Below are positions 29,533 to 58,795 of a stretch of 64,000 nucleotides of DNA, piece by piece. This DNA is from Trichormus sp. ATA11-4-KO1. GTDB taxonomy: Bacteria; Cyanobacteriota; Cyanobacteriia; Cyanobacteriales; Nostocaceae. The position numbers and the translations under genes were made by a program. The stretch is from NCBI GenBank assembly GCA_019358915.1, contig JAHHIM010000036.1, positions 96,001 through 160,000 on the forward strand, in the 5' to 3' direction. The notes beneath the pieces were generated by a model, which was not told the DNA's origin, did not search any database, and worked only from the letters and a program-made list of their open reading frames with translations. Numbering within the stretch: position 1 is the stretch's first letter; each line of letters starts with the position of its first letter.

Positions 29533-29847
29533 ATGAAAATTACAGAACTAGACGCTCACATCTCAGACTCTTCAATAGTAGTAGCAATTCCAGAACAAAT
29601 TTTTTCCGACATTGGCGATGAAGCAGTTATTCTGCATCTGAAGACAGGAATTTACCACGGACTAAATGAGGTAGGGGCGCGGATCTGGACTTTGATTCAA
29701 GAACCAAAAGCTGTGAAAGATATCAAGCAGAGCATTTTAGAAGAATATGAGGTGGCATCTGAAGAATGCGATCGCGACTTGATAGCATTGCTAAAAGACT
29801 TTCTTGCAGCTGGACTAATTGAGGTTAAAAATGAGACGAATGCGTAA
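29533..29847 (+). CDS. Lasso peptide B1 protein (PqqD-family RiPP recognition element)
   Basis: EAVILHLKTGIYHGLNEVGARIW...EYEV..C..D...GLIEV. Confidence 0.93.
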   Translation: MKITELDAHISDSSIVVAIPEQIFSDIGDEAVILHLKTGIYHGLNEVGARIWTLIQEPKAVKDIKQSILEEYEVASEECDRDLIALLKDFLAAGLIEVKNETNA

Positions 29848-30274
29848 GTTCTTGCATTTGAGTGCAGGCGATCGCTATTTTTTAATCAAGACCTTATTTT
29901 TACTAGGAGCAATCAGGTTAGGGCTGGGGTTACTACCGTTTAATAAATTACTAAAACTCCTCACGAAAATTAGTCAGCCCAGTCAAGGAACGCAGAGTAT
30001 CCACCAAGTATCTGTGAGCAAAATTGTTTGGGCTGTGAACGCAGTGACTCGCTGTGTACCAGGTGCTAAATGTCTGGCGCGGGCTTTAACTACCCAAGTG
30101 TTGATGAGTCGTTATGGATACCTACCCGAATTCCGCATTGGCGTGGCCAAGGGAGAAACAGGAAAGTTAGAAGCTCATGCTTGGATTGAATATCAAGGGC
30201 TAGTTGTCATCGGTAATCTCCAAGACCTTTCGCGTTATATGCCACTGCCGTCCCTGGAAGGAGTGAGATTATGA
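29831..30274 (+). CDS. Lasso peptide B2 leader peptidase (transglutaminase-like)
   Basis: KCLARAL...IGVAK...EAHAWIE; overlaps B1 and C. Confidence 0.93.
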   Translation: MRRMRKFLHLSAGDRYFLIKTLFLLGAIRLGLGLLPFNKLLKLLTKISQPSQGTQSIHQVSVSKIVWAVNAVTRCVPGAKCLARALTTQVLMSRYGYLPEFRIGVAKGETGKLEAHAWIEYQGLVVIGNLQDLSRYMPLPSLEGVRL

Positions 30275-32307
30275 GCGGTATTGTGGGTGTTCATTATCTC
30301 AACAATCGGGCTGTAAATCATCAAGACTTAGAACGGATGGTTGAGATCATCGCCCATAGAGGACCCGATGGTGCAGACATTTGGGTCAATGGTTCTGTTG
30401 GTTTTGGACATCGAATGTTGTGGACAACCCCCGAATCTTTAATAGAAAAATTACCCCTAGTCAATGAAGCAGCAAATCTCGTAATTACTGCGGATGCCAG
30501 AATTGATAATCGGGATGAATTAGCATCAGTGTTAGAACTACCTAATCGCCCCATAGAAAAAATTACAGATAGTGAATTTATCTTAGCTGCCTATGAAAAG
30601 TGGGGTGAGTCCTGCTCAGAACATCTTTTAGGTGATTTTGCTTTTGCCATTTGGGATCAAAACAAACAATCTTTGTTTTGCGCTAGAGACCATTTGGGGG
30701 TAAAGCCGTTTTATTACTATTATCAACCAGGTAAAGTTTTTGTATTTGCCTCAGAAATTAAGGCGATCTTCGGTTTACCGCAAATATCACGCCGACTGAA
30801 CGAGGTGAGAATTGCCGATTACTTGGCACTGATGATGGAAGATAAAGTCATCACTACTTACCAAGATATTCTGCGGTTGCCCCCTGCTCACAGCATGGTG
30901 ATCAATAAATCTGTAATTAGGACATGGCCATATTGGGAACTTGACAAATATCGGGAATTACGGTTATCATCCAACGATGAGTATGCTAAGGAATTTCAAA
31001 AAATCTTTACCGAGGCAGTACACTGTCGTTTGCGTAGTGCCTTTGCGATCGCTAGCCACTTGAGCGGTGGATTAGATTCCTCTGCCGTTACCTGTGTAGC
31101 TCGGCATCTACTGTCAAAAACACCAGAAAAACCTACTCAGCTACACACGATTTCCACCATTTTTGACCAAATCGCAGAATGTGATGAACGACCATTCATC
31201 AATGCGGTACTCGAACAAGGTGAGTTTATTCCCCACTACATTCAGGGAGATAAGAATGGCCCATTATCCAACTTGGATAACATTTTCCAGTATGAAGATG
31301 AAGCACTGTTAGGCCCTAGCCATTTTTATCCTTGGAACATGAACCTTGCGGTAAAGGATTTAGGACTGCGAATTTCTCTAGATGGTTTTGATGGTGATAC
31401 CACAGTTAGTCATGGTACAACCAGGCTCACGGAACTTGCCCGTCAAGGTAAATGGCAGAGTTTAATTCAGGAAGCAAAAGCAATTGCACCACACCACAAT
31501 GTATCACCCCAGGCTGTGTTTGGGTTTCATGGATTACCGTATTTGAGAGAATTGCCGAAGCGGTTGCGATGGATAGAGTTTGCCAAAGCAGTGCAACAAA
31601 TTCACCAGCATTTAGGTATTTCGCGCCAGCTTTTAATTATTCATCACGGTATTAAACCCCTACTGCTAGAACCGATAAAAAAGTTATGGCAGTGGGTTCG
31701 TAGACAAGAGAAACCGACTAAAGTTGCTTCATCTTTAACACCTCTAGTCAATCGTAACTTTGCCAAAAATATTGGTTTAGATGAACGCATCAATCAGCTA
31801 GGAGGCTCAACAGAAGCGCCCCTCACCGTCAAAGAACATCATTGGCGTAGTCTGAATCAAGGGTTACTAGCGTACACCTTAGAGCAGATGGATCAATATG
31901 CAGCTATGTTTTCTCTAGAAGCTCGTCATCCGTTCATGGATAAGCGACTGATTGAATTTTGCCTAGCATTACCTTCTGACCAAAAGCTCTACCAAGGATG
32001 GGGACGCATAGTTATGCGCCGTGCCTTAGAAGGTATTCTCCCAGAAAAAGTTCAATGGCGAGGAGATAAAACCAATCTGACACCAAATTTTTATGATGGA
32101 CTTTTAAAGCGCGATCGCCAAATTTTAGATGATGTCATGTCCAACAAGCTAGGAATTATTGAAAAATATCTAAATATAGATTTTTTACAATCAGCTTATC
32201 AACGAATAATCTCAGAAGAAAACCAAATTAATAATGAAGACATTATGGCAGTTTGGCAAGCAGTTACCTTAGCTTTGTGGCTAGACCATAAACAGGTAAA
32301 TTTGTAG
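30271..32307 (+). CDS. Lasso cyclase (asparagine-synthetase-like C protein)
   Basis: MSGIVG (Ntn Cys replaced by Ser), HRGPDG, ARIDNR, LSGGLDSS, RHPFMDKRLIEFCLALP. Confidence 0.93.
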   Translation: MSGIVGVHYLNNRAVNHQDLERMVEIIAHRGPDGADIWVNGSVGFGHRMLWTTPESLIEKLPLVNEAANLVITADARIDNRDELASVLELPNRPIEKITDSEFILAAYEKWGESCSEHLLGDFAFAIWDQNKQSLFCARDHLGVKPFYYYYQPGKVFVFASEIKAIFGLPQISRRLNEVRIADYLALMMEDKVITTYQDILRLPPAHSMVINKSVIRTWPYWELDKYRELRLSSNDEYAKEFQKIFTEAVHCRLRSAFAIASHLSGGLDSSAVTCVARHLLSKTPEKPTQLHTISTIFDQIAECDERPFINAVLEQGEFIPHYIQGDKNGPLSNLDNIFQYEDEALLGPSHFYPWNMNLAVKDLGLRISLDGFDGDTTVSHGTTRLTELARQGKWQSLIQEAKAIAPHHNVSPQAVFGFHGLPYLRELPKRLRWIEFAKAVQQIHQHLGISRQLLIIHHGIKPLLLEPIKKLWQWVRRQEKPTKVASSLTPLVNRNFAKNIGLDERINQLGGSTEAPLTVKEHHWRSLNQGLLAYTLEQMDQYAAMFSLEARHPFMDKRLIEFCLALPSDQKLYQGWGRIVMRRALEGILPEKVQWRGDKTNLTPNFYDGLLKRDRQILDDVMSNKLGIIEKYLNIDFLQSAYQRIISEENQINNEDIMAVWQAVTLALWLDHKQVNL

Positions 32308-32437: not shown

Positions 32438-32662
32438 ATGAAAAAACAGTACAGCACACCAACCCTGAAAACTCACGGAAACGTTGAAGAAATCACCCAG
32501 TTCTTCGGCGCTTCCTCTCAAAATGATTTCTTGTTCTTTGCTGGAAATAATTCTCCTATCTCTGCTCCTGGTGGCCCCATCACTGGTGGTGGTTCTATTG
32601 ATGGGGTTATTAATCCATCTGAAAACAGCGTTCGATCAAGAGGAACATTACAAGGAAATTAG
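32438..32662 (+). CDS. Lasso peptide precursor (21-aa leader + 53-aa core)
   Basis: GAGGAG RBS; leader MKKQYSTPTLKTHGNVEEITQ has YxxPxL, a Gly and Thr(-2); core starts FFGASSQND (Asp9). Confidence 0.9.
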   Translation: MKKQYSTPTLKTHGNVEEITQFFGASSQNDFLFFAGNNSPISAPGGPITGGGSIDGVINPSENSVRSRGTLQGN

Positions 32663-32851: not shown

Positions 32852-33757
32852 GTGATGAAAACTTATCAAGCCTACAATCTATCAATTGCTTCCGAATTGT
32901 TGTTGCCCGAATTAATTGAAATAGAAAAAGAAGGCAACCCAGACGTAATTGTACGGTTTGGTAAGCCAGAGGATATCACTAATGTGGAATTTGATCGGGG
33001 TAGCAAATTTCGTGGGGATGTAGCCGAAGTTGGCATGTTTTTGGTTCAGAAAGGATGTGAAATTACTATTGCTCCTGAGCCGGGAGTTGATGAAGCTCTT
33101 CTGTGTACCATACTTCTAGGTCCCATATTATCGATACTATTACGACAACGAGGACTGCTGGTTCTCCATGCTAGTTGTGTTGACATCAACAACAAAGCAG
33201 TGGCGTTTATGGGTGGTTCAGGCTGGGGTAAGTCAACCTTGGCAACAGCTTTTCATACAAGTGGCTTTGATGTCTTAAGTGATGATGTCATGCCGATCCA
33301 AATTGATTCAGGACAGCCAATAGTATTTCCTGCCTATCCCCAGTTCAAACTTTGGCCGGAAGCGGCTGCTTCTTTGGGACAGGATACCGAGAGTTTGTCT
33401 CCTATTCACCAAAACGCGCCTAAACTAGGCTACAAATTTGCTCGTGGTTTTCAACAAAATCCCCTGCCGTTACAGCGAATTTATGTACTGGCTAGGGGAG
33501 ATGAGCATGAAATTACTGAACTGCAACCCCAAGATGCCTTTGTCGAATTAGTGCGTCATACCCGTGCTATGAGTTTAGTAACAGAGCAGGAATTCCTGAC
33601 TTCCCATATGCGTCTGTGTACAGAACTAGTGAAAAAAGTGGATTTCTGTAGGTTTACTCGCAAGCCTTCTTTAGCAGATTTGCCCGATTTAGTCAAGCTA
33701 ATTGAAAATGATGTAGCAGACAACAACAAAAGCACTTTAACGTTAGCTGTCCAATAA
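32852..33757 (+). CDS. HPr-kinase-like lasso-associated kinase
   Basis: LHAS, GGSGWGKSTL Walker A, SDDV. Confidence 0.88.
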   Translation: MMKTYQAYNLSIASELLLPELIEIEKEGNPDVIVRFGKPEDITNVEFDRGSKFRGDVAEVGMFLVQKGCEITIAPEPGVDEALLCTILLGPILSILLRQRGLLVLHASCVDINNKAVAFMGGSGWGKSTLATAFHTSGFDVLSDDVMPIQIDSGQPIVFPAYPQFKLWPEAAASLGQDTESLSPIHQNAPKLGYKFARGFQQNPLPLQRIYVLARGDEHEITELQPQDAFVELVRHTRAMSLVTEQEFLTSHMRLCTELVKKVDFCRFTRKPSLADLPDLVKLIENDVADNNKSTLTLAVQ

Positions 33758-33794: not shown

Positions 33795-35660
33795 TTGAAC
33801 AGCAAACTCCGTAGCGCAAAGACCATACTCTCCCATGTCATCAAAACATTTAAATTAGTCTGGGTGGCATCTCACTACTGGACTGTAACCTGGATGGTAG
33901 CGCTGTTTGTTCAAGGATTGCTACCTGCCGCCTCCATTTCCCTCACGCCTCAAGTAGTCAACGCTTTAGTTAAAGCCACTGGCTCCGGCGTTTCTATGGC
34001 AAGTGTGCAGCAGATTCTCCTTCCTGTGGGATTGATGGCAGGGATCATGGTATTGGGGGAGGTTTTGAATAGTGCTAGTGAATGGATTCGCACTGCTCAA
34101 TCAGAGCTAATACACGACTACATCACTGGTTTAATTCATAAACAATCAGTGGCAGTGGATTATGGCTTTTATGAATACTCTGAATACAATGACAAGCTAG
34201 AGAGAGCGCGAGAGGGAGCTAGTGGGCGATCGCTGGCTTTATTAGAAAGCACTGGTAGTTTATTGCAAAACACAGTGACTTTGTTGGCAATGGCCACAAT
34301 TCTGCTTTCCTATGGTCTGTGGTTACCTGCAATTCTGGTGATCAGTGCTTTCCCGGCTTTTTATTTTTTGACGTATATAAATAAAGTACAGTATCAATGG
34401 TCACAACGGACGACAACTGATCGTCGATGGCTCATGTACTACGATTACCTATTGACAAACAGTGCGATCGCCGCAGAAATCCGCTTGTTTGACTTTGCTG
34501 ATTACTTCCAATCTTCTTACCAAAATCTGCGTCGGCGACTCAGACGTGAACATTTCAACTTGTTGAAATTACAAACAGCAGGCCGCCTGATTGCTGTACT
34601 GATTGCTTTGATCATTGCCGGTTCTGCTTTAGCCTGGATGGGACGGCAAGTTTTATTAGGAATTTTAACTTTAGGCGATTTAGCCTTATTTTTCCAAGCT
34701 TTCAATCAAGGACAAAGCATTGTCAAAAATCTTTTAAGCAACTTGGGGCAAATTTATCGCAATGGCTTGTTTCTGGGTAACTTGTTTGAATTTTTACAGA
34801 TTCAGCCAACAATTGTCAGTCCACCTAACCCGATTCCTGTACCATCAGCGCTTAAACAGGGAATTAAATTTAGACAAGTTTGCTTTCGCTACCCTGGCAG
34901 TCAAGAACCAGTGTTAGATAACTTTAACCTAACGCTACCGGCTGGTAAAATTGTGGCGATCGTCGGTGACAATGGTGCTGGCAAAAGTACTTTAATTAAG
35001 CTCTTGTGCCGCTTCTATGACCCGGATTCGGGAAGTATTGAACTAGATGGCATAGATTTTCGCAGCTTTTCTGTCAAAGAACTCCGCCGCTTAATTACTG
35101 TATTGTTCCAGTCTCCCATCCCATACAACACAACGGCTGGTGAAAATATTGCTTTGGGTAATATATCAACGGCATTTAACCAAAAAGACATTGAAGTAGC
35201 TGCTCAAGCATCGGGCATCCATGAAAAATTGTTACGCTTGCCTCTAGGGTATAACAGCATGTTGGGTAAGTTGTTTCCTGACGGCACTGACTTAAGCGGC
35301 GGCGAGTGGCAACGTCTGGCACTGGCACGGGCATTTTTCAGACGTGCCCAAATTATTATCTTGGATGAACCAACTAGTGCTATGGACCCGTGGGCTGAAC
35401 ATGACTGGCTGGAGAGGTTCCGTAAATTGGCAAGCGATCGCACTGCGGTTGTGATTACTCACCGCTTTACACTAGCGATGCAGGCAGATATTATTCACGT
35501 TATGCGTGCTGGTAAGATTGTAGAATCGGGAAATCATGATGAACTTCTAGCCTTAGATGGACTGTATGCTCAATCTTGGAAAACCCAAATGGAAGCTAAT
35601 TTCCATCGCGTTGTCGAGAACAGCATTGCTGAGAATTGTGTGCCCAATACGCATGTTTAG
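33795..35660 (+). CDS. ABC exporter (fused TMD + NBD), lasso-associated
   Basis: GDNGAGKST, LSGGEWQR, ILDEPT, ITHR. Confidence 0.95.
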   Translation: MNSKLRSAKTILSHVIKTFKLVWVASHYWTVTWMVALFVQGLLPAASISLTPQVVNALVKATGSGVSMASVQQILLPVGLMAGIMVLGEVLNSASEWIRTAQSELIHDYITGLIHKQSVAVDYGFYEYSEYNDKLERAREGASGRSLALLESTGSLLQNTVTLLAMATILLSYGLWLPAILVISAFPAFYFLTYINKVQYQWSQRTTTDRRWLMYYDYLLTNSAIAAEIRLFDFADYFQSSYQNLRRRLRREHFNLLKLQTAGRLIAVLIALIIAGSALAWMGRQVLLGILTLGDLALFFQAFNQGQSIVKNLLSNLGQIYRNGLFLGNLFEFLQIQPTIVSPPNPIPVPSALKQGIKFRQVCFRYPGSQEPVLDNFNLTLPAGKIVAIVGDNGAGKSTLIKLLCRFYDPDSGSIELDGIDFRSFSVKELRRLITVLFQSPIPYNTTAGENIALGNISTAFNQKDIEVAAQASGIHEKLLRLPLGYNSMLGKLFPDGTDLSGGEWQRLALARAFFRRAQIIILDEPTSAMDPWAEHDWLERFRKLASDRTAVVITHRFTLAMQADIIHVMRAGKIVESGNHDELLALDGLYAQSWKTQMEANFHRVVENSIAENCVPNTHV

Positions 35661-36079: not shown

Positions 36080-37210
36080 ATGAAAACCAAACCCGATACT
36101 GAAAATCAGGAAATTACAAATCGCCCTGAGGTTGAGCTACTTCTTTGTATTGCTCGTACTCATCCAGATACCGCAACTATTGAACGCATCAAAACCCTGC
36201 TTGAGCAAGACCTTGACTGGGCCTACATAATTCAAACAGCAACATTTCACAAGGTCATGCCACTGCTGTACCAAAACTTGAATACTAACTGTACAGAGCT
36301 AGTTCCCAAAGATGTTTTGGCGGATCTGCTGTATTATTTCAAAGCCAATGCTAGACGCAACTTGTTCCTGACTAACGAGTTGCTTAAACTGCTGAATCTA
36401 TTTGAATCCCATGACCTCACCGTAATTCCAATTAAAGGAGCTATCCTTGCTGTCTCAGTCTACAATAATCTCGCACTCCGACAGTTCACAGACATAGATA
36501 TCTTAGTTCGCCCGCAAGATGCCATAGTAGCTAGGGATCTGCTGGTTGCTCAGGGATTTCAAAATACATACAATCATACTCGAGACCAAGAAGTCGCCAG
36601 GCTACAATCTCCATTCTGCAAGGATAATAACTACACACACAAACATACAGGGGTTAATTTAGACCTTCACTGGCAACTCTTGCAGAAATATCTATCTTTT
36701 CCCATTGCACATGAACGCCTGTGGGAGCGTCATGGGGCAATATCCTTGGCAGGTAAAACAGTAATTAACCTATCACCAGAAGATAACCTTTTATTCCTCT
36801 GTGTACATGCTTGCAGGGATCGTTGGAACAAGTTGAGTTTAATCAGCGATGTTGCTACACTCATCTGTGTTTCGTCAGAGATGAATTGGGATTGGGTTAT
36901 AGAGCAAGCCAAGCTATTAGGTTGTTGGCGGAGATTATTGCTTGGTATGCTCTTAGCTAAGAATTTACTGGAAACAGAGATTCCCGAAATAATTTTGCAA
37001 AAAATAAAGGCTGAATCTGGGCTAAAAACAATTACGAAACAAGTGGAAGAAAGGCTTTTTATTCAAACTTACAAGCCACCCACACTCTGGACAAGATATT
37101 TTTTCGATTTGAGCCTAAGGGAACGTCTACAAGATAAAGTTCAGTACGGTGTTTACCAATCTGTCCTGATTACTGCCAGAAGCAATAAACTATTCCCGGC
37201 TTGGATATAG
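36080..37210 (+). CDS. Nucleotidyltransferase family protein (NTP_transf_5-like)
   Basis: IKGAIL...LRQFTDIDILV, LDLHW, LFLCVH. Confidence 0.88.
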   Translation: MKTKPDTENQEITNRPEVELLLCIARTHPDTATIERIKTLLEQDLDWAYIIQTATFHKVMPLLYQNLNTNCTELVPKDVLADLLYYFKANARRNLFLTNELLKLLNLFESHDLTVIPIKGAILAVSVYNNLALRQFTDIDILVRPQDAIVARDLLVAQGFQNTYNHTRDQEVARLQSPFCKDNNYTHKHTGVNLDLHWQLLQKYLSFPIAHERLWERHGAISLAGKTVINLSPEDNLLFLCVHACRDRWNKLSLISDVATLICVSSEMNWDWVIEQAKLLGCWRRLLLGMLLAKNLLETEIPEIILQKIKAESGLKTITKQVEERLFIQTYKPPTLWTRYFFDLSLRERLQDKVQYGVYQSVLITARSNKLFPAWI

Positions 37211-37733: not shown

Positions 37734-39176
37734 ATGAATAAGCATACTTCTCTTTTGTGTTCAGTTCTTGCATCTTCTGTTTTCTTAGCTCAGCCATCAG
37801 GCTATACGTTGGCAAATACACCTGTTACGATTACAGTTAAACAAGGAGCAAGACAAGCGCTTCAAGGCTTAGGTGCTAGTCAAACTATTGGTGGTGGCAG
37901 AAATTATTCAAAACTGGCACAATCTGAAAAAAATACGCTGCAAAAACTTGTGTGTACTGACATAAAGTTTAAAATTGTCAGGTTATGGTTTAATCCTTCT
38001 CAATATGCACCTGAGCCTGGTGTAGAAGATAATTCTGCGTTTTTAAAATCTTTTGTAAACTCAGGATTTATTTCTGATGCCTTGGTCAATGGCTGTAACA
38101 CACTTCTACTTGCTCCCACCGGAATTCCAGCATATATGGGTCCTTCTAGTGGACGTGGCTACATTCGTGACTCTCAGGTCAAAAATTATGCCGCACTCTT
38201 AGCAGATTTTATATATAAAGTGAAGCAAGAAAACGGAGTAACAATTCACGCTACAGGTGTGTTGAATGAGCCAAACGACCGTCCTATAAAATTCTCAGAT
38301 GAGCAGTGGCCTGTCATCATCAAAAATCTCCGTAAAGAGCTTGATAATCGTGGGTTGAAAGATGTGAAAATTATTGCCCCAGAACTAGCAAATGCCGATG
38401 CTGTAGCGGATCGAGTGATTAAAGCTATAAAGCAAGACCCTGAAGCATGGGAAGTTTTGGACGGGATCTCAACCCACTCCTATAACATGGCAGCGAGACC
38501 AAGTATTTCCAATTTGATTGAGGGAACAGATAAAGAATATTGGATGACAGAAGCTGGTACTAACGGTCCAGAAGAACCAGGGGATGCATTAAACGCTGCT
38601 GCTGCGGCTACTCGGTTTCTCAATGACATGAACCATAGAGTTAGTCACTGGATTTGGTTTATTGGTCACGCATCAGCAGATCCCAAAGATAATGCTACAC
38701 GCCTGATTCGTTATTCGTTTGATCCATTTCGTTATGATATTTTTCAGAAGTATTACTACTTTCTCCAACTCAGCAAGACATTTGACTTGGGGGCAGTATT
38801 TAGAAAAAGTGTAAGTTCCCTAGACGGCAACATGACCTGGACTTACGGTAAAAAGCCCCGAATTACTGTCGCTAGTGCCAAAAATCCAGATGGTTCTTGG
38901 GGAATAGCTGTCAGCAACTTTACAGACGATAGGTTTGAGGTTACCCTTCCTAACGGTTACAAAGTGTCAAACCCACAAGGGGGTCGTGCAGCAGAGGATT
39001 TTGCGGTAACAGTCTTTGTGGAGGAACTTGCCCAAGCAGGAGACAAAACAATGAGAATGTATCGCTCAAATAGTAATGTCAATAACGTATATGTTGGTGA
39101 TGCTGTGATGCGTAGAGGAAAGGTGACTATACCTAATGTACGCAGTTTGGATTTAATTACTTTGCGAAGTCAATAA
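37734..39176 (+). CDS. Secreted clan GH-A glycoside hydrolase (GH30-like)
   Basis: Signal peptide; QGLGAS; acid/base LNEP; nucleophile WMTE; C-terminal KNPDGS beta domain. Confidence 0.75.
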   Translation: MNKHTSLLCSVLASSVFLAQPSGYTLANTPVTITVKQGARQALQGLGASQTIGGGRNYSKLAQSEKNTLQKLVCTDIKFKIVRLWFNPSQYAPEPGVEDNSAFLKSFVNSGFISDALVNGCNTLLLAPTGIPAYMGPSSGRGYIRDSQVKNYAALLADFIYKVKQENGVTIHATGVLNEPNDRPIKFSDEQWPVIIKNLRKELDNRGLKDVKIIAPELANADAVADRVIKAIKQDPEAWEVLDGISTHSYNMAARPSISNLIEGTDKEYWMTEAGTNGPEEPGDALNAAAAATRFLNDMNHRVSHWIWFIGHASADPKDNATRLIRYSFDPFRYDIFQKYYYFLQLSKTFDLGAVFRKSVSSLDGNMTWTYGKKPRITVASAKNPDGSWGIAVSNFTDDRFEVTLPNGYKVSNPQGGRAAEDFAVTVFVEELAQAGDKTMRMYRSNSNVNNVYVGDAVMRRGKVTIPNVRSLDLITLRSQ

Positions 39177-39205
39177 ATCCTCAAAACAAGTAGTTGAAAA
39201 AAATA

Positions 39206-39269
39206 AAAGTTTGTAGTCAGTGGCTCTAGCCCTGAAAACCTTGAATATAAGCGCTAAAGCACTCACTAC
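39206..39269 (+). repeat. Dispersed 64-bp repeat, copy A
   Basis: 63/64 identical to the reverse complement of 40664-40727. Confidence 0.9.
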
Positions 39270-40583: not shown

Positions 40584-40663
40584 GCTTGTTTTTCTAAGCT
40601 GAATATAGATAGTCTACAAGTAAGCAAGTAGGTGCAATTCAAATCTCAATATACTCATGCCTC

Positions 40664-40727
40664 GTAGTGAGTGCTTTAGCGCTTATATTCAAGGTTTTCA
40701 GGGCTAGATCCACTGACTACAAACTTT
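40664..40727 (-). repeat. Dispersed 64-bp repeat, copy B (inverted)
   Basis: Inverted partner of 39206-39269. Confidence 0.9.
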
Positions 40728-40785
40728 CCTTTACTTAAATGAGACATAACCCAGCAATATTATCAAAATTTGTCAAATTAGGTAT

Positions 40786-42024: not shown

Positions 42025-42042
42025 AATTTGAAAGCATATTTT

Positions 42043-47655: not shown

Positions 47656-47714
47656 GCCCTGGCTTTTACTCCTGTGACATATAGCAATTTAATTTCAACA
47701 TAATAATTGAACAT

Positions 47715-49055: not shown

Positions 49056-49417
49056 GATTTTTAACTGATTTCTAAGATAGAGTTGAATTCTTTGACAAAA
49101 TAAAATTTTGTTTTTAAATATGCAAAATTACAAGAATTTTGTAGTGTTTTTTATTGCTAGCAACTTTTGCATCCATATTAGTCTATTTTTTTGACCTATT
49201 GTCAGCTTAATCTACCCATAATGTAAATATAAAAGGGGCTAAATTCTTAAATCCTTCTTCTTTAATTGTATTTCAAGCTACTTTTGGAACTACATTTAAT
49301 TTAGTTTACAAGCATAGGGCAATACTAAAACTTTTAGTCTATTTTAATTTACTAATTTATGATGCCCATATGGGACACAGCACAGAAAACATTTTTGATA
49401 ATTAATGCTAAGAAAAA

Positions 49418-50566: not shown

Positions 50567-50777
50567 AGCTTACCATTGAAGAGATTTTGATATTTAAACT
50601 TAACCTATTCTTAATTTGAATTAAGTCTTGAAACAATCGCAATTTCGCAATTAGTTCCAAAATAATATTTTTGGACGAGTTCGGAAACCCTTGTAGTACA
50701 ACAAGCATTTACATGTTATGTAATAAAATGTAACTTGCATTTAAACGTGTAATATGATTACTTACTACATATCTTAC

Positions 50778-51641
50778 TCAAGCCAAACCTAACCACCCTT
50801 GCATCCTACCTTGAAATGTAAACCAATAAGATCGAACTTTATCTAAACGACCTTGTAAAAGTGATATTGCTATTCCCATCAATGGGCGAACCCAATTATA
50901 AATCACGAACCACAAGGGAGCTTTATGTTTACGAAGAACGCGACCTCTACCCATTGCGTAAGCATAAGTTTTGGAATAGGTTGCATTTTTGCTGGCTTTA
51001 ATAAGTTGGATAGGTTCTGATGGTGTTAACTTGATTGGATGAATTACAGTTATCGAGGGTTCGTAATATAAGCCAGTGTTAATTGCACGCAACAAGTAAT
51101 CAGTTTCCTCAGCGGAACCCCAAGGTGTATTTGCTCCAACTCCTAAACTTTCATCAAATTTACCTACCTGCATTACAGTAGCTCGGCGAAGAAATATAGT
51201 ATACGAAATACCCCTTCGCCACACATTAAATTGGTTAATTAATCCAGGTGGACTGCCAAGATGTCTACCAGAGTCTCTACCTTGCTCATCAATAGAACTT
51301 CCTGTTAAACCATTTAACTCGGGATGATTAATAAAAAAACTCGCTACACGCTCAAGAATATCTGGTGGATAAGCGCAATCATCATCAGGGAAAGCCACAA
51401 TATCACCATTAATCTGCTCCAAAGCAACATTACGAGCGCGGGAAAGCCCTGGGGCTGAACGCAGGTGTATGATGGGATATCTATGCTGATAAATCTGGAT
51501 AAATTTTACAAGGCGGTCATCTGGATTTTGATCTACAACAATCAAATCAAAGCTACGATAAGTTTGACAATCTAAAATTTTTAAAAAATTTTCAACCTCA
51601 GCAGTACGATTTAAAGTTGCTAGAATTAGGGAAAACTTCAT
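50778..51641 (-). CDS. GT2 glycosyltransferase
   Basis: IVVDQ, GLSRARN, AFPDDD, FDESLG..EETD. Confidence 0.9.
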   Translation of the reverse strand: MKFSLILATLNRTAEVENFLKILDCQTYRSFDLIVVDQNPDDRLVKFIQIYQHRYPIIHLRSAPGLSRARNVALEQINGDIVAFPDDDCAYPPDILERVASFFINHPELNGLTGSSIDEQGRDSGRHLGSPPGLINQFNVWRRGISYTIFLRRATVMQVGKFDESLGVGANTPWGSAEETDYLLRAINTGLYYEPSITVIHPIKLTPSEPIQLIKASKNATYSKTYAYAMGRGRVLRKHKAPLWFVIYNWVRPLMGIAISLLQGRLDKVRSYWFTFQGRMQGWLGLA

Positions 51642-51701
51642 GATTTTACTTCCTATTAATTAGTTACAAGTGCTACCACTTTCAGGTTTATGGTAAAGCT
51701 G

Positions 51702-52694
51702 TTACTTTGCTATTAAGTAAAATTTATCCTTGAATTTAATTAAATTTTTATGTCCTTCACGTCCGAATATTATTAATATCAATCCAGTTAATATGTATGT
51801 TCCAGAAATAGGTAAGAATTGCAATAAACTAAGTGTGTAACGTAAAGCTAAAAATCTATTATTTGCATCAACCGCTTTTCCTAATCGATTTACTTGTATA
51901 ATTGAAGTTTTTAACCCTACACACTCACGATAACCTTTATATCCAAGATGCTGTTTTATAATTGAACCCCACTTATTTTCAAATATATGAAAACCTTGCA
52001 AGTTAGCTGATAGATTGCCTCCAATTTGCTTATTATGAAAATATCTGATGATTAATGGTTCGTTCACAGTAAGAAAGTGATTATTAGCTTGAGCTAAACT
52101 TAGCCATAGGTCATAATCTTGAAAGCTAGGTAACCTTTCGTCAAAGCCACCGACATCTATTAAAGCGGAGCGCTTAATCATAAAAAGGGATGTAGTTGGA
52201 GGTAACCATCCTCTTAATAAATGATTAAAAACATCCCCCTCATGGGCAATCAAATTTGGCAGTTTCTTGCGTTGGATTGATTCATAATATTCATATCCCG
52301 AACAATAAACTACAGTGGCATGAGGATTATCACTAGACTGGAGACGAGCTAACTGTAATTCTAGTTTTCTGGGTAGCCATTCATCATCACTATCTAAAAA
52401 AGCTATATAGTCTGCACGCGCTGCTTTAATACCTTGATTTCGTGCATGGCTACCACCGCAATTTTTTCCTAAAGGTAAAAATCTAATTCGTGGATCTATA
52501 AAGTTCTTAACTACTTCATCTGTATTATCTGTAGAACCATCGTCTACAATAATTAATTCAAAATTTGAAAATGTCTGTGCAAGAACGCTAGAGATCGCTC
52601 TTGGTAGTAGATTAGCTCGGTTAAAAGTGGGTATGACAACACTAACAGTTAGCTGATTTTCAAGTGTTAACGACACGTTGCCTGAAACTGCCAT
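51702..52694 (-). CDS. GT2 glycosyltransferase
   Basis: SVVIPTFNR, VDDGSTD, FLDSDDEW, QDYDLW. Confidence 0.93.
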   Translation of the reverse strand: MAVSGNVSLTLENQLTVSVVIPTFNRANLLPRAISSVLAQTFSNFELIIVDDGSTDNTDEVVKNFIDPRIRFLPLGKNCGGSHARNQGIKAARADYIAFLDSDDEWLPRKLELQLARLQSSDNPHATVVYCSGYEYYESIQRKKLPNLIAHEGDVFNHLLRGWLPPTTSLFMIKRSALIDVGGFDERLPSFQDYDLWLSLAQANNHFLTVNEPLIIRYFHNKQIGGNLSANLQGFHIFENKWGSIIKQHLGYKGYRECVGLKTSIIQVNRLGKAVDANNRFLALRYTLSLLQFLPISGTYILTGLILIIFGREGHKNLIKFKDKFYLIAK

Positions 52695-52746
52695 TGCTTT
52701 AATCCTTTAAGCTAAAATCTTTTACAACTTCTACAATAACCTCTTT

Positions 52747-54012
52747 CTAGTTAGTCAAAGCAGCTAAGTTTTTAACTAAGGCTATAACTTGAGAACGAAT
52801 TTTTTCCATTTCAAATAGATTGATTAATTCAGACTGTCGTTTAAACTCGTCGTCTTCCAAAATTTTTAGTACTTGCAATACAACTTGTTCATTTAGTACA
52901 GATACTGTATGTTTAGATATCCCCAAAGTCGAAAAAAAATTTTCTATTTTGGGACCGACAAAAAGCCCTAGCACCGGAACACCCTCAGCAAGAGCCAAAA
53001 TAGCTGAGTGTAACCTAGTAGCAAGGACAGCTGTACTAGAACGCATCAAAGTTCTAAGTTGCTCAACATTGGTGCAAACATGAAGGCTACTACTAGATGT
53101 TGACAACTGGCTGAGTATAATTTTCGCTCGTTTAATATCTCCTGAATTACCAGTTGTGAACAACTTGACACAAGATTGGTTGTTTCCTGAATGTTTATCT
53201 AACCATGCGTTAATTATTTTACAAAGGACATCATCATACCTAGATTGGTAATGGGAAACGTGCTTTTTGTAAGCCATTACATTTACAGCTAATATTTGCT
53301 GGTTTGAAGTATGTGGCATTAATTGCCTTGGCTTGATTGCAAGTAAGGCAAAATCACCAAAAACTGGAACCTGAGTTCCTAGTCTTTGTGACAAACGGTT
53401 TGCTGTATTATGGTCTCTTGTAGCTATAAAATAACAAGATTTAGCAAAGGCAGTAATTATTTTTTCACCTTGTTTAGACCATTCAGTTTCTGCACTACAG
53501 CCTAGACAGATTAGTGGAATTTGAAGCTTTTTAGATGCCCACATAATTGTAGATAGAGATTGGGGAAAATGCAAATCCGTATCTGATAGCAATGCTCCAC
53601 CTCCAACCATAATTACTTGAGCATTTTTTAGCTTTGGTATGAGCTTTTGTATTCGGATGCGCTGAATTATTGGTCTAAGTCCTCGTTTTAAAATTTTAGT
53701 TAGTTCTATCTTTAAACTATAAAAATTGCTGGGAGAAGAAATGTTTTTGAAAGATGAGTATGGGGTCTTATAGTTCATTTCTTTAGGAAAATAGACTTCA
53801 CCAGACTTTTCGTGCGAAGAGAGTAGATGTATGGGATTTTGAACAGGTTTTAAAGTTCCAAAATTATAGGCATCAACACTGTAACCAGCCTTTTGAAAAA
53901 ATTCAGTCACACCTTGACAAATAGCTCTGTCCCCCAAATTTGTAGTGTTCCATTCTCCAAATGCAGCAATTTTTATATCTTTGCTTTTATCCACTTCCAT
54001 ATTTTTATCCAA
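52747..54012 (-). CDS. Polysaccharide pyruvyltransferase family protein
   Basis: NLGDRAI, VGGG, TRD, TRLHSAI. Confidence 0.82.
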   Translation of the reverse strand: MDKNMEVDKSKDIKIAAFGEWNTTNLGDRAICQGVTEFFQKAGYSVDAYNFGTLKPVQNPIHLLSSHEKSGEVYFPKEMNYKTPYSSFKNISSPSNFYSLKIELTKILKRGLRPIIQRIRIQKLIPKLKNAQVIMVGGGALLSDTDLHFPQSLSTIMWASKKLQIPLICLGCSAETEWSKQGEKIITAFAKSCYFIATRDHNTANRLSQRLGTQVPVFGDFALLAIKPRQLMPHTSNQQILAVNVMAYKKHVSHYQSRYDDVLCKIINAWLDKHSGNNQSCVKLFTTGNSGDIKRAKIILSQLSTSSSSLHVCTNVEQLRTLMRSSTAVLATRLHSAILALAEGVPVLGLFVGPKIENFFSTLGISKHTVSVLNEQVVLQVLKILEDDEFKRQSELINLFEMEKIRSQVIALVKNLAALTN

Positions 54013-54060
54013 AATTAAATTTATTTATTGTTAATATTTATTTGTTCTCATAAGTAATTA

Positions 54061-54906
54061 TCAATCAACTTTAATTAGTTCAAGAGCAGTTTTTTGCCTA
54101 GTTACGAAATGTAAAAAATTAGCTATTTTAATCAGAAGAATTATTGAATAAGTACTATGAGACTTGTTGAGTATCCAGTTACTTGTTTTAGGAGAAAACA
54201 TAGCTCTACCAATGGAGACACCTTTAAGCTTTTCAAGTATACTGAAGTTAGCATTTTTGAATACAGAGCCACAGTTAGGTGCCGTATTATCTTGATGTTC
54301 TTTTGCCCAAATTTGTCTTGAGACTAAAGGATTGTCATTAAATTCTGTTCGTTCAAACTTGAAAACCGCACTTAATATCAGTTTAGAATGTATACCAGTA
54401 AATATCGTCTCTCTATAACCTCGCACAATTTGATTATTTTGAAGTGTTTTAATACATCCATTCTCAAAGAAAGTTACACTTTCAACAAAATCATATATTG
54501 TACATCCATATTGTCTCCCTCTACCAGCATTCATTGCTAATGCACCTCCAATCGTTGCCGGGACAGACGCAAGATAATAAAAAGAATTCATGGAGTTTTG
54601 GTAACAGTGTTTTAAAACCTCCATGATTAAAACTGAAGAAGATATTTCTAATTTATCTTCAGTTAAAGAATTTATGTACTTAGGTAGTTTGTTTTTTAGT
54701 ATCAATGATTTGATATTTTTTTTCACGAACAAGGTATTGGAGCCATTTCCAATTATGTAAATGTTTACTTTGTTTTCTTTTGCCCAAATACAGTACTCAC
54801 GGAGGTCATCTAAACTACTAATTTCTCCTACTCGCTCAAAATGATGGCGAGTTCTATAGTGAGAAAGACTAGTTGATGTTAAAGACTCAATTTTTAAATT
54901 AGACAT
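54061..54906 (-). CDS. MurB-like FAD-dependent enolpyruvyl reductase paralog
   Basis: IGNGSN, PATIGGALAMNAG, GYR, PNCGSVFKN, SPKTSNWILN, terminal LEL. Confidence 0.85.
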   Translation of the reverse strand: MSNLKIESLTSTSLSHYRTRHHFERVGEISSLDDLREYCIWAKENKVNIYIIGNGSNTLFVKKNIKSLILKNKLPKYINSLTEDKLEISSSVLIMEVLKHCYQNSMNSFYYLASVPATIGGALAMNAGRGRQYGCTIYDFVESVTFFENGCIKTLQNNQIVRGYRETIFTGIHSKLILSAVFKFERTEFNDNPLVSRQIWAKEHQDNTAPNCGSVFKNANFSILEKLKGVSIGRAMFSPKTSNWILNKSHSTYSIILLIKIANFLHFVTRQKTALELIKVD

Positions 54907-54917
54907 CTTCTCTCTTT

Positions 54918-56075
54918 CTACTCCTTGCTACACTCAACCTTATTTTTATTACGGTCTGCTCCTTCTGTAATTGCTTCCAGTAAATATTTTTTTGATTCCA
55001 AAATTTTTAATTCCAAAACTTTAGACACTATTTCATAGTCTATATCAAAAGCTTTTTCTTTTACTTGGGATATAGTATTTTCTGAAAATATCCTATCTTC
55101 CAATGATAAATCTCTAAGTAAATCGGTTACTTTGTTCGATTTGTTGCTAGGAACAAATACACTAAAAGGTTTTTGAAAAATAATTGCAAATATAGTTCCA
55201 TGATAAGTATTAGTTACAATGTATGATGCTTGGCTGAACGCTCCAATCCATTCCTGTGGACAAGCATTTTCTAGATTCACTTTTGCTACTTGATTACATT
55301 TACCAATTGAAACTATATTTAATCCATGACGTTCTGCTATTGATTTCACTAAATCCTCCTCAGTCGAAGCTAATTCATCCTGGTTATAAATTAAAAGATA
55401 TTTACCTTCTATTTTGGGAATATGTTTAATTGCATCATAGTTAATTAAAAACGTAGGATCTAAAACTTTTTTAGCTACCATATTACATTGATTTACAATT
55501 ATTCGCTCGCTGTTAGAATCACGAACCAAAATCGTTTGAAATTGATTAACTAGATTACATATTTCTTCTCGATGATTATTTAGTACTGTTAACTCGCCAA
55601 AACTAGCTGCATAACTTATCTTACGGGTAGCTTGATTATTAACAAAATCTAAAAAGAAAGAGGCATCAAATCCTCTGATAGAATTGAGAGACCATATTTG
55701 ATCACTACCGCATATTACTACATCATATTTACTATTAAAGTGTTGCAAGCCTTTTTTTCTATAAAATTTCCTCTGGCTTAACCTGACGTGGGAAAGCAAA
55801 AATTGCCTGATTTTCCAAGCTCTAGAAATATTGACGAATATCTTTTCATTAATATGGAGTTGATGAATACTAAGCTTTTGACTTTCATGAATGCTAAGTT
55901 TTTTCCTTCTGATAGGTCTTAAACTTTTTGTATAGTATCTAACTGCCCTATAAGGCCTATAGTCTATTATTTCAACGTCATAGCCTTGACTGTTAAGGAA
56001 ATTCCATAGAGCATAAGCTTGAAGTGTTGCCCCGTAGTTATCTATATGGTGAAAAGTTATAATTCCTATTTTCAT
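54918..56075 (-). CDS. Polysaccharide pyruvyltransferase family protein (NYGA / GSDQIW type)
   Basis: MKIGIITF..NYGATLQAYAL, CGSDQIW, SYAASFG, VRD, DPTFL, NTYHG. Confidence 0.88.
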   Translation of the reverse strand: MKIGIITFHHIDNYGATLQAYALWNFLNSQGYDVEIIDYRPYRAVRYYTKSLRPIRRKKLSIHESQKLSIHQLHINEKIFVNISRAWKIRQFLLSHVRLSQRKFYRKKGLQHFNSKYDVVICGSDQIWSLNSIRGFDASFFLDFVNNQATRKISYAASFGELTVLNNHREEICNLVNQFQTILVRDSNSERIIVNQCNMVAKKVLDPTFLINYDAIKHIPKIEGKYLLIYNQDELASTEEDLVKSIAERHGLNIVSIGKCNQVAKVNLENACPQEWIGAFSQASYIVTNTYHGTIFAIIFQKPFSVFVPSNKSNKVTDLLRDLSLEDRIFSENTISQVKEKAFDIDYEIVSKVLELKILESKKYLLEAITEGADRNKNKVECSKE

Positions 56076-56289
56076 CTTTGCTGTCTCCAAATCAAAGTAC
56101 TAATTTGATATATCACACATTTCGTAAGCTAATTTACAAAATTATTTTGATTCTAGCTTTTGTTTCTTATGTTTCTTAAATAAATTCATTTAAACTTCTC
56201 CTGGCTATATTAAGTTGATTTTATTCAGTTATAATCTAATTTTAAAATTTACTTATTTAAGTTAGGTACTCATTAATGTATGAAAAATT

Positions 56290-57798
56290 TTATATCTTTT
56301 TTTTTCTTTTAAGCTTGATGTTTACAAAATCGGTTAAGCCAAGAATCTTTTTGAAAAGCTTTGGTGATATTACAAAAACGATAAAAATATAACTTAAAGT
56401 ACCAACTAAGATTAAACTAGCTGTTAATAACTTCATTTCAATGCCAATAAATGTTACCAATAAATATTTAATAGCTATCATACTTCCAATCATCCCTAAA
56501 GAAGCTACTAAAGGTACCATATATAAACGCAAATATTGAATAAAATTAAGTTTAACCAATTTGTGAATAGCCACCAGTGAAATAGGTAAGAGTAGATAAC
56601 CACGAATTACATAAGCAGATGCTACAGCTAAGATACCCCATTTTACTACTAGTATAAAAGATACGACATTAACAACTGTATTTATAATTTGTATCCATAA
56701 CCTCCAGGCGGGTTTGCCCAATGCCATAATCACAGAACTGTTATAGAAGGCAATTATATGAACAGGCCCAATAAGTGCTAGAACTTGCATTACTGGAATA
56801 CTTTGAGTCCATTGCTTACCAAATAAAATTTGGACTAATTCAGGTGCCAAAACTGTGAAGCTAAGAAACATCGGAAAAGCAATGGTACTACCAACTTCAG
56901 TAACATTATAGAAAGCTTTTATTAACCGTTCTGGTTCTCCCTGCAATCTAGAAAATACCGGGAATGCAACTTTACCTATCGTACTAATTAAAACTTGTGT
57001 CATTACTTGTAATATTCTGTAAGCAACAGAGTAATAACCTAGTGCAACTGATCCAAGGTAGCGTCCAATGAGTAAATCATCTGACCTACGATTAAAAAAG
57101 TTAATTATACTAAACGCAGTTACATTAATGCCAAAAGCATAAAGTTCTTTAGCATGAATGGCTGAAAATTTAAATCCTGGTCGCCAATCGCTAACTCGCC
57201 ACAAAACCAAAACCTGCAATAAGCTATTAGATATTTGTTGACCCACGAGGCTCCAAACTCCAAAGTTTAGAAAAGCCATTCCTACACCAACCATTCCACC
57301 GAATACAACTGCGATTAGTGAACGTATTGCTAAAGTCTTGAAAGCAAGATTACGTGTAAGAATAGCGCTTTGTACACTGCTTAAACCACTAAATATAAAA
57401 CTTATTGATAAGTACTGAATAATTGGTGTTAATTGGGGTTGGTCAAAGAAATTAGCAGCTAATCCGGCACAAGATATACTTAATACGGTCAAGAATACAC
57501 TAATTGTTAAAGTTGTCCAGAAGGCTGTATCTAGGTGTTCTGCTTCTAATTCTTGACGTTGGATAAGTGCTTGAGAAAATCCTTGATCAAGAAAAATTTG
57601 CACAAATCCAAGAAAAACTGAAGCTAAAGCAACTAGACCAAAAATTTCTGGATTGAGTAACCGAGCTAGAACGAAGAAAACAATTAAGGAAACTCCTTGG
57701 CGTCCCCAATTTTCAATAGCAGACCAAGCTAAACCTTTAACTGCCTGTTTTCGTAAATTTGATGGCTTTTCAGGTGATTCCATTATCGGATTTACCAA
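56290..57798 (-). CDS. wzx: Wzx-type (MOP superfamily) flippase
   Basis: LARLLNPEIFG, GFSQALIQ, multiple TMs, LGYYSVAY. Confidence 0.88.
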   Translation of the reverse strand: MVNPIMESPEKPSNLRKQAVKGLAWSAIENWGRQGVSLIVFFVLARLLNPEIFGLVALASVFLGFVQIFLDQGFSQALIQRQELEAEHLDTAFWTTLTISVFLTVLSISCAGLAANFFDQPQLTPIIQYLSISFIFSGLSSVQSAILTRNLAFKTLAIRSLIAVVFGGMVGVGMAFLNFGVWSLVGQQISNSLLQVLVLWRVSDWRPGFKFSAIHAKELYAFGINVTAFSIINFFNRRSDDLLIGRYLGSVALGYYSVAYRILQVMTQVLISTIGKVAFPVFSRLQGEPERLIKAFYNVTEVGSTIAFPMFLSFTVLAPELVQILFGKQWTQSIPVMQVLALIGPVHIIAFYNSSVIMALGKPAWRLWIQIINTVVNVVSFILVVKWGILAVASAYVIRGYLLLPISLVAIHKLVKLNFIQYLRLYMVPLVASLGMIGSMIAIKYLLVTFIGIEMKLLTASLILVGTLSYIFIVFVISPKLFKKILGLTDFVNIKLKRKKKI

Positions 57799-58000
57799 TT
57801 AAAGGGTTAACGACTTTGATGATGTGTCAATCAAGTTAGTGCATGAGATAAAAATTGAAAGTTGTACAAGACTTGATTTACAGCATTCTTGTATAAAGTA
57901 TTACCTTAGTCTTGCTTGTACAGAATAAGTACACAGTAACAGTAAGCACAAGAGAAGAAATTACTCGTGCTTTTCATGAAACCGTTACAGTACCGAACTT

Positions 58001-58795
58001 TCAGTCACCTGTTCCCAGGAAACCCCCTGCAAAACGACTTGATGAAAGCATCTGTTTAGTCGCCAACCAAATAAAGGGCGGAATTGTTGTACCATAACGC
58101 CGCCAGAGTCGGCGCGGCTCTTGAACCCAGCGATAAAGCCACTCAAACCCTAGGTCTCGAACTATGCGGGGTGCGCGCTTTTGAATGCCTGCATAAACAG
58201 GGAAAACCCCACCCACGCCAATCATGACTGCCTGAATTTTATCTTGATGCTGAGCCATCCACTTTTCTTGTTTTGGACACCCCAGGGATACAAAAACTAC
58301 CCCAGCGCCACTGGAGTTAACTGTATTTATTAAAGCCTCGTCTTCAGTCTCAGTTAGAGGGCGAAAAGGTAAAGGTTCCATCGCCGCTACTTTTAGCTTA
58401 GGAAATTCATCTTCTAGACGTTCTCTCATCCTAGAAAGAATTTCGGTTTGCGAACCAACAAAGAAAACACTGACATTTTGCGTTTGAGCTTTTTCACACA
58501 AAGCTAGAAAAAGATCCATTCCCGCGACACGGTCTTGGTAACGCGCCCCCATATACCTCATCATCCACACGAGGGGCATACCATCAGGGGTCACTAAATC
58601 TGCATTGTGTAGTACGTTAGCAAACTCTGGATTCCAGTGAGCTTCCATCAGCATGTGTACATTCGCTACACATACAGCTTTACTCTCACGAGCGATCGCC
58701 CACCTCAGTATTGTTTGTATCTGATCATCAAAGCGCAAAGCAGTAATAGGGAAATCAAGCACTTTTTGAGTAGGCAGAAAAGTTCTTCCTACCAT
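58001..58795 (-). CDS. WecB/TagA/CpsF family glycosyltransferase (GT26)
   Basis: PDGMP, RVAGMDL, LGCPKQE, FEWLYR..QEPRRLWRRY. Confidence 0.93.
   Translation of the reverse strand: MVGRTFLPTQKVLDFPITALRFDDQIQTILRWAIARESKAVCVANVHMLMEAHWNPEFANVLHNADLVTPDGMPLVWMMRYMGARYQDRVAGMDLFLALCEKAQTQNVSVFFVGSQTEILSRMRERLEDEFPKLKVAAMEPLPFRPLTETEDEALINTVNSSGAGVVFVSLGCPKQEKWMAQHQDKIQAVMIGVGGVFPVYAGIQKRAPRIVRDLGFEWLYRWVQEPRRLWRRYGTTIPPFIWLATKQMLSSSRFAGGFLGTGD

Follow-up and report, generated by a model that had tools for sequence, protein, structure and literature searches.

A lasso peptide cassette with kinase and nucleotidyltransferase genes beside a Wzx/Wzy-type polysaccharide block in Trichormus and related cyanobacteria

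Genes of the locus

The 64,000-nucleotide stretch of Trichormus sp. ATA11-4-KO1 analysed here (contig JAHHIM010000036.1, positions 96,001 to 160,000 of the forward strand; hereafter the window) carries a lasso peptide cassette on the plus strand, which converges on a block of polysaccharide genes on the minus strand. The linkage of such lasso genes to glycan genes reaches well beyond this genome and is weaker outside the Nostocaceae. The gene at the junction of the two units, encoding a nucleotidyltransferase-fold enzyme (NT), appears to be inherited with the glycan block and not with the lasso cyclase.

Profile matches bear out the plus-strand order of the original prediction, namely B1 (leader-binding RRE protein), B2 (leader peptidase), C (cyclase), A (precursor), K (HprK-like peptide kinase), an ABC exporter, NT and a glycoside hydrolase (Table 1). 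The cyclase, RRE and B2 peptidase that identify a lasso cluster are all present with intact motifs, and the catalytic motifs of B2, C, K and NT are intact. The kinase gives weak profile matches only, but retains His106, the GxGKS motif (GKS126) and the Asp-Asp motif. The glycoside hydrolase is confined to this type of block, being present in the related loci L003-L005, L037 and L225. The closest named relative belongs to the Nostocales and has a cyclase 95% identical. Orthologues of A, B1, B2 and C belong to the lasso cluster of Cyanocohniella sp. LLY (our locus L005), whose account, in the sections available, describes four core genes only and leaves the kinase, the NT and the glycan neighbours unmentioned (PMC9332814). 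A second lasso cluster of the Trichormus genome (L001, at 69016-75114 of contig C9) consists of B1, B2, C (46% identical), K and ABC genes and a precursor with a terminal Ser, and has neither an NT nor glycan neighbours. The window NT, the sole one of the genome, could serve this second cluster in trans.

The minus-strand block (39405-58795) holds the 15 predicted genes: six GT4, two GT2 and one WecG/TagA glycosyltransferases (GTs), nine in all, together with a Wzy_C protein, three pyruvyltransferases, a MurB-like protein and a Wzx flippase. The two Wzc-like genes expected upstream of the lasso genes are also present, the nearer one 1.5 kb from B1. With Wzx, Wzy, Wzc and GTs in place, the locus is a Wzx/Wzy-dependent system. 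It resembles the cyanobacterial exopolysaccharide (EPS) loci described with Wzx, Wzy_C, Wzc, GT4/GT2 and pyruvyltransferase genes and with other steps encoded elsewhere (PMC4594306), and differs from the usual ones by an optional cassette for a peptide made on ribosomes and modified after translation (RiPP) at its 3' end.

The window contains no PF02397 priming transferase and no Wza, as was noted at the outset, but this absence does not support a peptide anchor: the genome encodes both functions outside the window, with four PF02397 genes for priming transferases and two PF02563 genes for Wza, and cyanobacterial EPS genes are reported to be scattered over the genome (PMC4594306), so that their absence from the window is uninformative. 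The related idea that the peptide itself is the primer was rejected because of these four priming transferases and because blocks without lasso genes exist.

A Wzx/Wzc system requires a Wzy polymerase. The Wzy_C protein is likely to be the polymerase of the block, since it is the sole such gene there and shows no further domain. It had been proposed, as a ligase-like protein, to attach the glycan to the peptide; this route finds no support, as the only Wzy/WaaL-type gene has a Wzy_C domain alone and has counterparts in lasso-free blocks. Extra domains beside Wzy_C mark PglL-type enzymes, and none was found in this protein at E<=0.01, a test that short TfpO-like enzymes would escape. To note, the Wzy slot of most relatives is occupied by a 455-amino-acid membrane protein (L024:17403-18797 and 23 homologues) with no Pfam or NCBIfam match.

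Table 1. Features of the window discussed in the text (positions in the window; E, expectation value)
Feature	Position	Strand	Basis and remarks
Second Wzc-like gene	19979-22237		
Wzc-like co-polymerase/tyrosine kinase	25791-28073	-	Wzz + CbiA/ParA domains, TIGR01007; flanks the conserved slot on the left
tRNA-Gln(TTG), bounding the variable slot on its left	28827-28900	-	ARAGORN; between wzc and B1
Lasso B1, leader-binding RRE	29533-29847	+	PF05402, E 1e-18
Lasso B2, leader peptidase	29819-30274	+	NF033537, 105 bits, above cut-off; Cys85 and His120 motifs
Lasso cyclase C, cyanobacterial subgroup	30271-32307	+	NF033535, 1058 bits (cut-off 525); SGGLDS motif
Precursor A	32438-32662	+	NF033528, 70 bits (cut-off 33)
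HprK-like peptide kinase K	32852-33757	+	Hpr_kinase_C, E 4e-4; TIGR04352, E 2e-9
ABC exporter, MsbA-like	33795-35660	+	Profile matches
Nucleotidyltransferase-fold enzyme NT, PsmN-like	36080-37210	+	PF14907, E 2e-60
Glycoside hydrolase, GH30/GH59-like	37734-39176	+	GH59, E 6.5e-8; signal-peptide-like N-terminus
Five GT4 glycosyltransferases flanking the Wzy_C gene	39405-47655	-	PF00534
Wzy/WaaL-family membrane protein, likely polymerase	42043-43338	-	PF04932, sole domain at E<=0.01; homologues named O-antigen ligase/polymerase
Three pyruvyltransferases, GT4, two GT2, MurB-like flavoprotein, Wzx flippase	47715-57798	-	GC 0.34 (low)
WecG/TagA glycosyltransferase, first gene of the block	58001-58795	-	PF03808, E 4e-64
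tRNA-Leu(CAA), right boundary	59912-59996	-	ARAGORN

Glycan linkage and the inheritance of the nucleotidyltransferase

Linkage was followed in 73 related loci drawn from the best 80 of 190 matches, a set selected by likeness to the window cyclase and made of kin. Forty-four of these carry an NT; after removal of nine in which the locus ends too soon, a GT or Wzy-type gene faces the NT within three open reading frames in 30 of the 35 informative loci. Within the Nostocaceae the lasso orthologues are thus mostly glycan-linked, contrary to the outcome that the original prediction named as its refutation. Glycan genes were counted in loci of at least 15 kb with profiles seeded from this genome alone, the profile of the orphan Wzy-slot protein being left out because it had been built from the test loci. 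At least one glycan gene accompanies 36/38 loci with an NT (two or more, 29/38) and 6/15 loci without (two or more, 2/15), and four of these last six have an NT slightly past the locus edge. The background amounts to 51/260 for the 20-kb tiles of the same genome (two or more, 16/260) and to 6/34 for control stretches of other genomes (two or more, 2/34; four short stretches dropped).

B2 turned up in 31 of the 401 genomes covered by an even search across the phylum. Of the kinase-bearing loci in this sample that span 15 kb or more, 10/14 with an NT and 0/9 without one have a glycan gene within ~10 kb. Four of the ten linked loci are cyclase-free operons with internal GTs; linkage among the cyclase-bearing clusters with an NT is 6/10. 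Outside the Nostocaceae, the sample comprises 10 of 30 chosen PF14907 loci: one of the six clusters combining cyclase, K and NT (L255) reproduces the exact architecture of the window, and three further loci have GTs.

The kinase/NT lasso kit also recurs in glycan loci of an archaeon, of Alphaproteobacteria and of Bacillota. A plasmid search with the cyclase gave 357 records, the top ones mostly annotated asnB or unannotated, five of which were examined. On the plasmids of Halopiger (the archaeon), Antarctobacter, Paenibacillus and Priestia, the lasso kit lies among flippase, GT and nucleotide-sugar genes; the Runella plasmid was set aside, having a cyclase-like gene but no NT or glycan genes. 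Nine of the 13 plasmid records obtained with the NT were examined. Thalassobaculum and Azospirillum hold lasso genes with GTs, the latter repeating the junction where NT faces a GT, and in Priestia the NT terminates a polysaccharide block. A set lacking a cyclase but including GTs occurs in Crinalium; in Hyphomicrobiales, glycan genes accompany the NT and no lasso gene is in view; Deinococcus shows one GT and no lasso gene; and the profiles used here detect no GT in Gemmatirosa. SinI-family anti-repressors are biofilm regulators, and two annotated genes of this family precede, with galU, the lasso genes of the Priestia plasmid (L108:15382-21941).

The NT appears to follow the peptide system from genome to genome and the glycan block from locus to locus. 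Genome-wide, it is present in 12/12 genomes having B2 and K and in 2/10 without them. At the level of the locus, the NTs are just 35-42% identical to that of the window where the cyclases are 68-74% identical to the window cyclase and the Wzy slot holds the commonest type; in L037, L045, L050 and L128, whose cyclases are 44-58% identical, the NTs reach 56-62% and the Wzy, where in view, is one of two Wzy_C types. On a tree of 76 NT rows, 39 of them typed for Wzy, the window NT belongs to a starred clade of 11 rows, and three changes of Wzy type are required (shuffles: mean 6.6, minimum 4). In nine genomes the lasso core stands apart from an NT; this NT then lies beside GTs in six (two of them close kin), has wzc as its sole such neighbour in one and has neither of them alongside in the remaining two. 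This inheritance with polysaccharide genes points to where the missing donor or partner of the NT may be encoded.

The Asp138/Asp140 (DxD) pair of the NT is invariant in 102 sequences. Its predicted model, with a predicted local distance difference test (pLDDT) score of 92, has a pol-beta nucleotidyltransferase fold with MenT, LnuA and ANT(2'') as best matches; FKRP, a phospho-ribitol transferase, is a weak one (E 0.06). A sequence search of the PDB with NT and K returned no match below E 0.03.

The polymer genes also occur on their own. A wzc orthologue is found in 40/60 genomes of the family, and six of these have too little flank to be read. Next to wzc, the 34 informative genomes have the lasso core in 13 cases, glycan genes without a lasso core in 15, NT alone in one and neither in five; in four of these 15 (G013, G026, G441 and G454) the lasso genes lie 22-52 kb from wzc on the same contig, with glycan genes in between. 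B2 and K were not found in eight of the 15 genomes with a lasso-free block (G005, G017, G020, G024, G027, G036, G448 and G456), all eight being 96-100% complete. Six of them also lack PF14907, and seven of the eight blocks share Wzy-slot protein types with lasso-bearing ones. As the polymer genes thus persist in genomes where the peptide genes were not found, it is unlikely that the peptide is a required anchor or primer of the polymer. The original proposal of a link between peptide and glycan through the NT gains from the co-inheritance of NT and block, but a peptide that is required as the acceptor is made unlikely by these eight genomes.

Precursor family, proposed pathway and rival readings

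Precursor A consists of a 21-residue leader, with a YxxPxL motif and Thr at position -2, and a 53-residue core. The core has Asp9, within the 7-9 range expected of the ring-closing Asp or Glu, and a predicted Phe1-Asp9 ring; a Phe1 start and a 44-residue tail are unusual for a lasso peptide. Asp9 is found in 96 of the 113 distinct precursors of the related loci, 80 of which are of the window's type and 33 of others. Cores are hypervariable and often several per locus. When 20 hand-picked precursors are aligned, the leader Tyr, Pro, Gly and Thr are invariant, and invariance within the core is limited to Asp9 and one Ser, Ser32 here, located in an internal G-S-x-D; the last core residue is Asn, not Ser. 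The tail motif [GDN]-S-x-[DN] occurs in 58/80 window-type precursors (shuffle mean 16.8, maximum 28) and S-x-[DN] in 72/80 (mean 39.4, maximum 50), contrasts that are overstated because the precursors are kin. A C-terminal Ser is present in 4/80 of them vs 24/33 of the remainder, and Ser3 in 0/80, the window peptide having Gly3 and Thr-2. From these comparisons, Ser32 of G-S-x-D is our predicted phosphosite. Tandem pairs of different lasso clusters, seen in L021, L039, L040, L044, L049, L051, L053, L057, L063, L069 and L071, often mix both precursor types, with internal G-S-x-D and with C-terminal Ser.

The cassette is akin to the pseudomycoidin (psm) and paeninodin (pade) clusters of Bacillota, which combine B1, B2, C, an HprK-like kinase, a PF14907 NT and an ABC exporter with DD and DxD motifs (PMC6993621; PMC13381572) and which, as here, often stand beside capsular polysaccharide loci (PMC13381572). 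The early assignment to this type is therefore right for the kinase and the PF14907 NT with their catalytic residues, but not for phosphosite, leader and host: the window precursor has no C-terminal Ser, the residue targeted by the pseudomycoidin kinase (PMC6993621), and a YxxP leader, and the nearest named relatives are in Nostocales, whereas a WxxP leader and a Bacillota host mark the subfamily (PMC13381572). It further departs from psm/pade by its 53-residue core with a predicted Phe1-Asp9 ring, its cyanobacterial cyclase subgroup and a glycan block that is convergent, not surrounding.

The bsf cluster of Bradymonas sediminis is likewise a seven-gene kit in a Gram-negative cell, with a kinase using a non-terminal Ser, but differs by ring Ser3 as the site, Ile at -2 (Ile or Val in the subfamily) and non-glycan flanking genes (PMC10368454). 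Linear polyphosphorylated peptides (LPP) share an RRE, a kinase, an NTP transferase and an exporter of the MsbA-like type located in polysaccharide loci, but have no cyclase and a SipW-like peptidase, while C and B2 are present here (PMC13381572); outside the pseudomycoidin type, known kinases of this family act on Ser3 (Bsf, PMC10368454; LPP, PMC13381572). The davasins (IgtG) are glycosylated lasso peptides with a modified Ser, made by one dedicated in-cluster GT2 fusion, and the available text of their description mentions no kinase or NT, in contrast with the separate Wzx/Wzy block found here (PMC11912497). The window cassette thus appears to work like the pseudomycoidin, Bsf and LPP kits, yet its precursor departs from the phosphosite rules of each.

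Published accounts cover part of this association. In Bacilli, the co-location of lasso and capsule loci has been reported, with the roles given as unknown and biofilm formation as a speculation (PMC13381572), and GTs have been noted near rumen lasso clusters (PMC7533575); the words 'cyanobacteri' and 'polysaccharide' do not occur in the accessible text of a 2026 review (PMC13352647). Our literature search, which left subscription journals mostly outside, found no account of lasso-glycan linkage in cyanobacteria or archaea and no description of the internal-Ser precursor family or of the co-inheritance of NT and glycan block.

The reading that we favour, with a probability of about 0.5, is that of an optional phospho-glycosylated lasso peptide, coupled via the NT to a Wzy-type exopolysaccharide without being its required anchor. 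By precedent within the families, B1 and B2 would take off the 21-residue leader, C would join Phe1 to Asp9, K would phosphorylate a Ser, for which we propose Ser32, and the ABC protein would export the product. As for PsmN, which is required for the hexose on the phosphate of pseudomycoidin (PMC6993621), the NT would cap the peptide phosphate with a hexose. The neutral monoisotopic masses calculated for the untrimmed core are 5293.55 Da when cyclic, 5373.51 Da with a phosphate and 5535.56 Da with phosphate and hexose, although the tail may be trimmed. The comparisons above suggest two further steps: the neighbouring glycan pathway may supply the donor or partner of the NT, and the glycopeptide may reach the same envelope layer as the polymer, presumably a pyruvylated Wzy-type polysaccharide. 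LppN is reported to be inactive in a foreign host, with an outside partner proposed, and lasso, LPP and EPS genes to be up-regulated together (PMC13381572).

Several observations weigh against such a coupling. PsmN hexosylates its substrate in E. coli, without the native glycan genes (PMC6993621). In the even sample, a glycan gene is missing from four of the ten cyclase-bearing clusters with an NT; outside the Nostocaceae, the profiles used here detect none in five of the six clusters with cyclase, K and NT. Along the cyclase tree (74 rows, built quickly and without a mixture model), glycan linkage differs in the same way as the NT in 5.4 of 13 independent pairs, in the opposite way in 0.3 and not at all in 7.3, a result that is suggestive only (median p 0.06) and includes four loci mislabelled as lacking an NT that lies past their edge. 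L056 and L225 are exceptions to the rule that the NT follows the Wzy type. The NT gene closes the lasso set on the side of the block, so that breakpoints falling between ABC and NT could by themselves produce the co-inheritance, whether or not a function lies behind it. The S-x-D motif is retained in precursors of loci without NT and without glycan genes. Finally, the two units lie on opposite strands, and no upstream motif common to the B1 and wecG ends was found.

Part of this evidence would suit a passenger cassette, a possible though doubtful alternative, in which a surface-glycan slot swapped by recombination, from wzc/tRNA-Gln to wecG/tRNA-Leu, carries genes for a stand-alone phospho(hexosyl) lasso peptide used in signalling or competition. 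The cassette is indeed optional at wzc, the slot is occupied by divergent cyclase clades and tandem clusters with variable and often multiple cores, the C9 cluster has neither NT nor glycan neighbours, and most NT-bearing clusters examined outside the Nostocaceae are unlinked to glycan genes. A mere passenger is, however, difficult to reconcile with a pairing that recurs at unrelated positions in Archaea, Alphaproteobacteria and Bacillota, or with clusters devoid of NT that have no glycan neighbours in the even sample. The cassette moreover remains on the block when the block departs from wzc and tRNA-Gln (L228, L229) or is inverted (L231, L234, L237), and no att-like repeats were found between 28000 and 60500.

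It is rather improbable that the phosphoserine acts as a soluble carrier, on which the NT and the block GTs or the Wzy/WaaL-like protein would build the repeat unit of the polymer. Were this the case, the cyanobacterial sheath would include, as an option, a covalently bound knotted glycopeptide, and such a scheme would also account for the lasso kits with kinase and NT that occur in glycan loci of Archaea, Alphaproteobacteria and Bacillota.

Even less credit can be given to the phosphopeptide as a covalent acceptor or anchor of the polysaccharide, whether its Ser-(pyro)phosphate-sugar mimics the lipid carrier or the Wzy/WaaL-like protein ligates chains to it in the periplasm. WecG is a second-step enzyme, and it is in the window while the priming transferase is not; the four genes for priming transferases and the two for Wza outside the window, and the priming transferase adjoining the lasso genes in L064/L066, nevertheless argue otherwise. 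The predicted model of the commonest Wzy-slot protein (pLDDT 80) matches WaaL (7tpg, E 5e-4), a fold with no power to distinguish a ligase from a polymerase, and the only Wzy/WaaL-type gene of the window block, free of PglL-type domains, is needed as its polymerase. The cassette has no outer-membrane export partner, and product ions were not found in the native Paenibacillus (PMC13381572); both would suit an acceptor, but the eight nearly complete genomes retain the block although neither B2 nor K was detected in them.

According to the least probable reading, the NT is mainly a polysaccharide enzyme, which equips the repeat unit with a phospho-linked substituent or activates a sugar for the block, the lasso genes being just adjacent or borrowing it. 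This would account for an NT that follows the Wzy type, stays with the block, weakly resembles FKRP and, in Priestia, Hyphomicrobiales and G026, has its place inside glycan operons or at their end, but it conflicts with the six lasso-free block genomes devoid of any PF14907 gene, with the genome-wide association of NT with B2 and K, and with the action of PsmN on a phosphopeptide (PMC6993621).

The coupled, optional peptide that we favour bears on two questions described as open in the literature, namely what phosphorylated lasso peptides do and on which substrate their PF14907 enzyme truly acts (PMC13381572, PMC6993621). The locus adds a cyanobacterial lasso family with a predicted internal phosphosite. 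Named strains hold natural variants with block and cassette, block and NT only, block alone or cassette alone, which opens the link between RiPP and extracellular matrix to comparative testing. Should the peptide carry sugars of the polymer, this would give a RiPP a structural role in the envelope.

Flanks, regulation and minor features

The tRNA-Gln gene adjoins wzc in most of the relatives mapped as well. Integration of an island at the two tRNA genes was considered and dropped, for lack of the att-like direct repeat sought between them. The locus was likewise rejected as the heterocyst polysaccharide island: a separate locus with Wzc, priming transferase, ABC and GT genes at 429-441 kb of contig C36 suits the label better.

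Shared regulation of the two units was also discarded: besides the lack of a common upstream motif, promoter-like counts (28 vs 30.8 shuffled) and terminator-like counts (11 vs 10.2) show no excess in the region. A site before B1, presumably NtcA-like, is absent from the nearest relative. A GTA-N8-TAC site, to which we give the same presumptive label, lies at about 58987-59000, 154-213 nt ahead of wecG, and is kept in 10/15 upstream regions.

Four Nostocaceae genomes (L113, L114, L117 and L121, ~6500-16300 in each locus) carry a cyclase-free operon in the order B1-GT4-precursors-K-GT2-(epimerase)-B2-ABC-NT, with short, Gly/Thr-rich cores without ring Asp/Glu. By its gene content, it looks like a system for a linear glycosylated phosphopeptide with its own transferases; L248, L254 and L240 hold akin cyclase-free sets. 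In lasso clusters of other cyanobacterial orders (L132, L247, L249 and L250), an arginine-methyltransferase-like gene is inserted between K and ABC.

Two conserved genes without Pfam match (23675-24991 and 25183-25716), 73-97% identical in relatives, are located between spoIID and wzc. A 76-nt dispersed repeat, with eight matches in the genome, is present in inverted orientation at 39194-39269 and 40664-40739, on either side of the last GT4 gene. A 444-bp intergenic stretch (44726-45169) is enclosed by perfect 24-nt inverted repeats, and the genome holds no second full copy of it. At 60305-60955, a reading frame of 216 codons for a flavin mononucleotide (FMN)-dependent dehydrogenase matches a 350-position profile in two stretches, with an apparent internal deletion.

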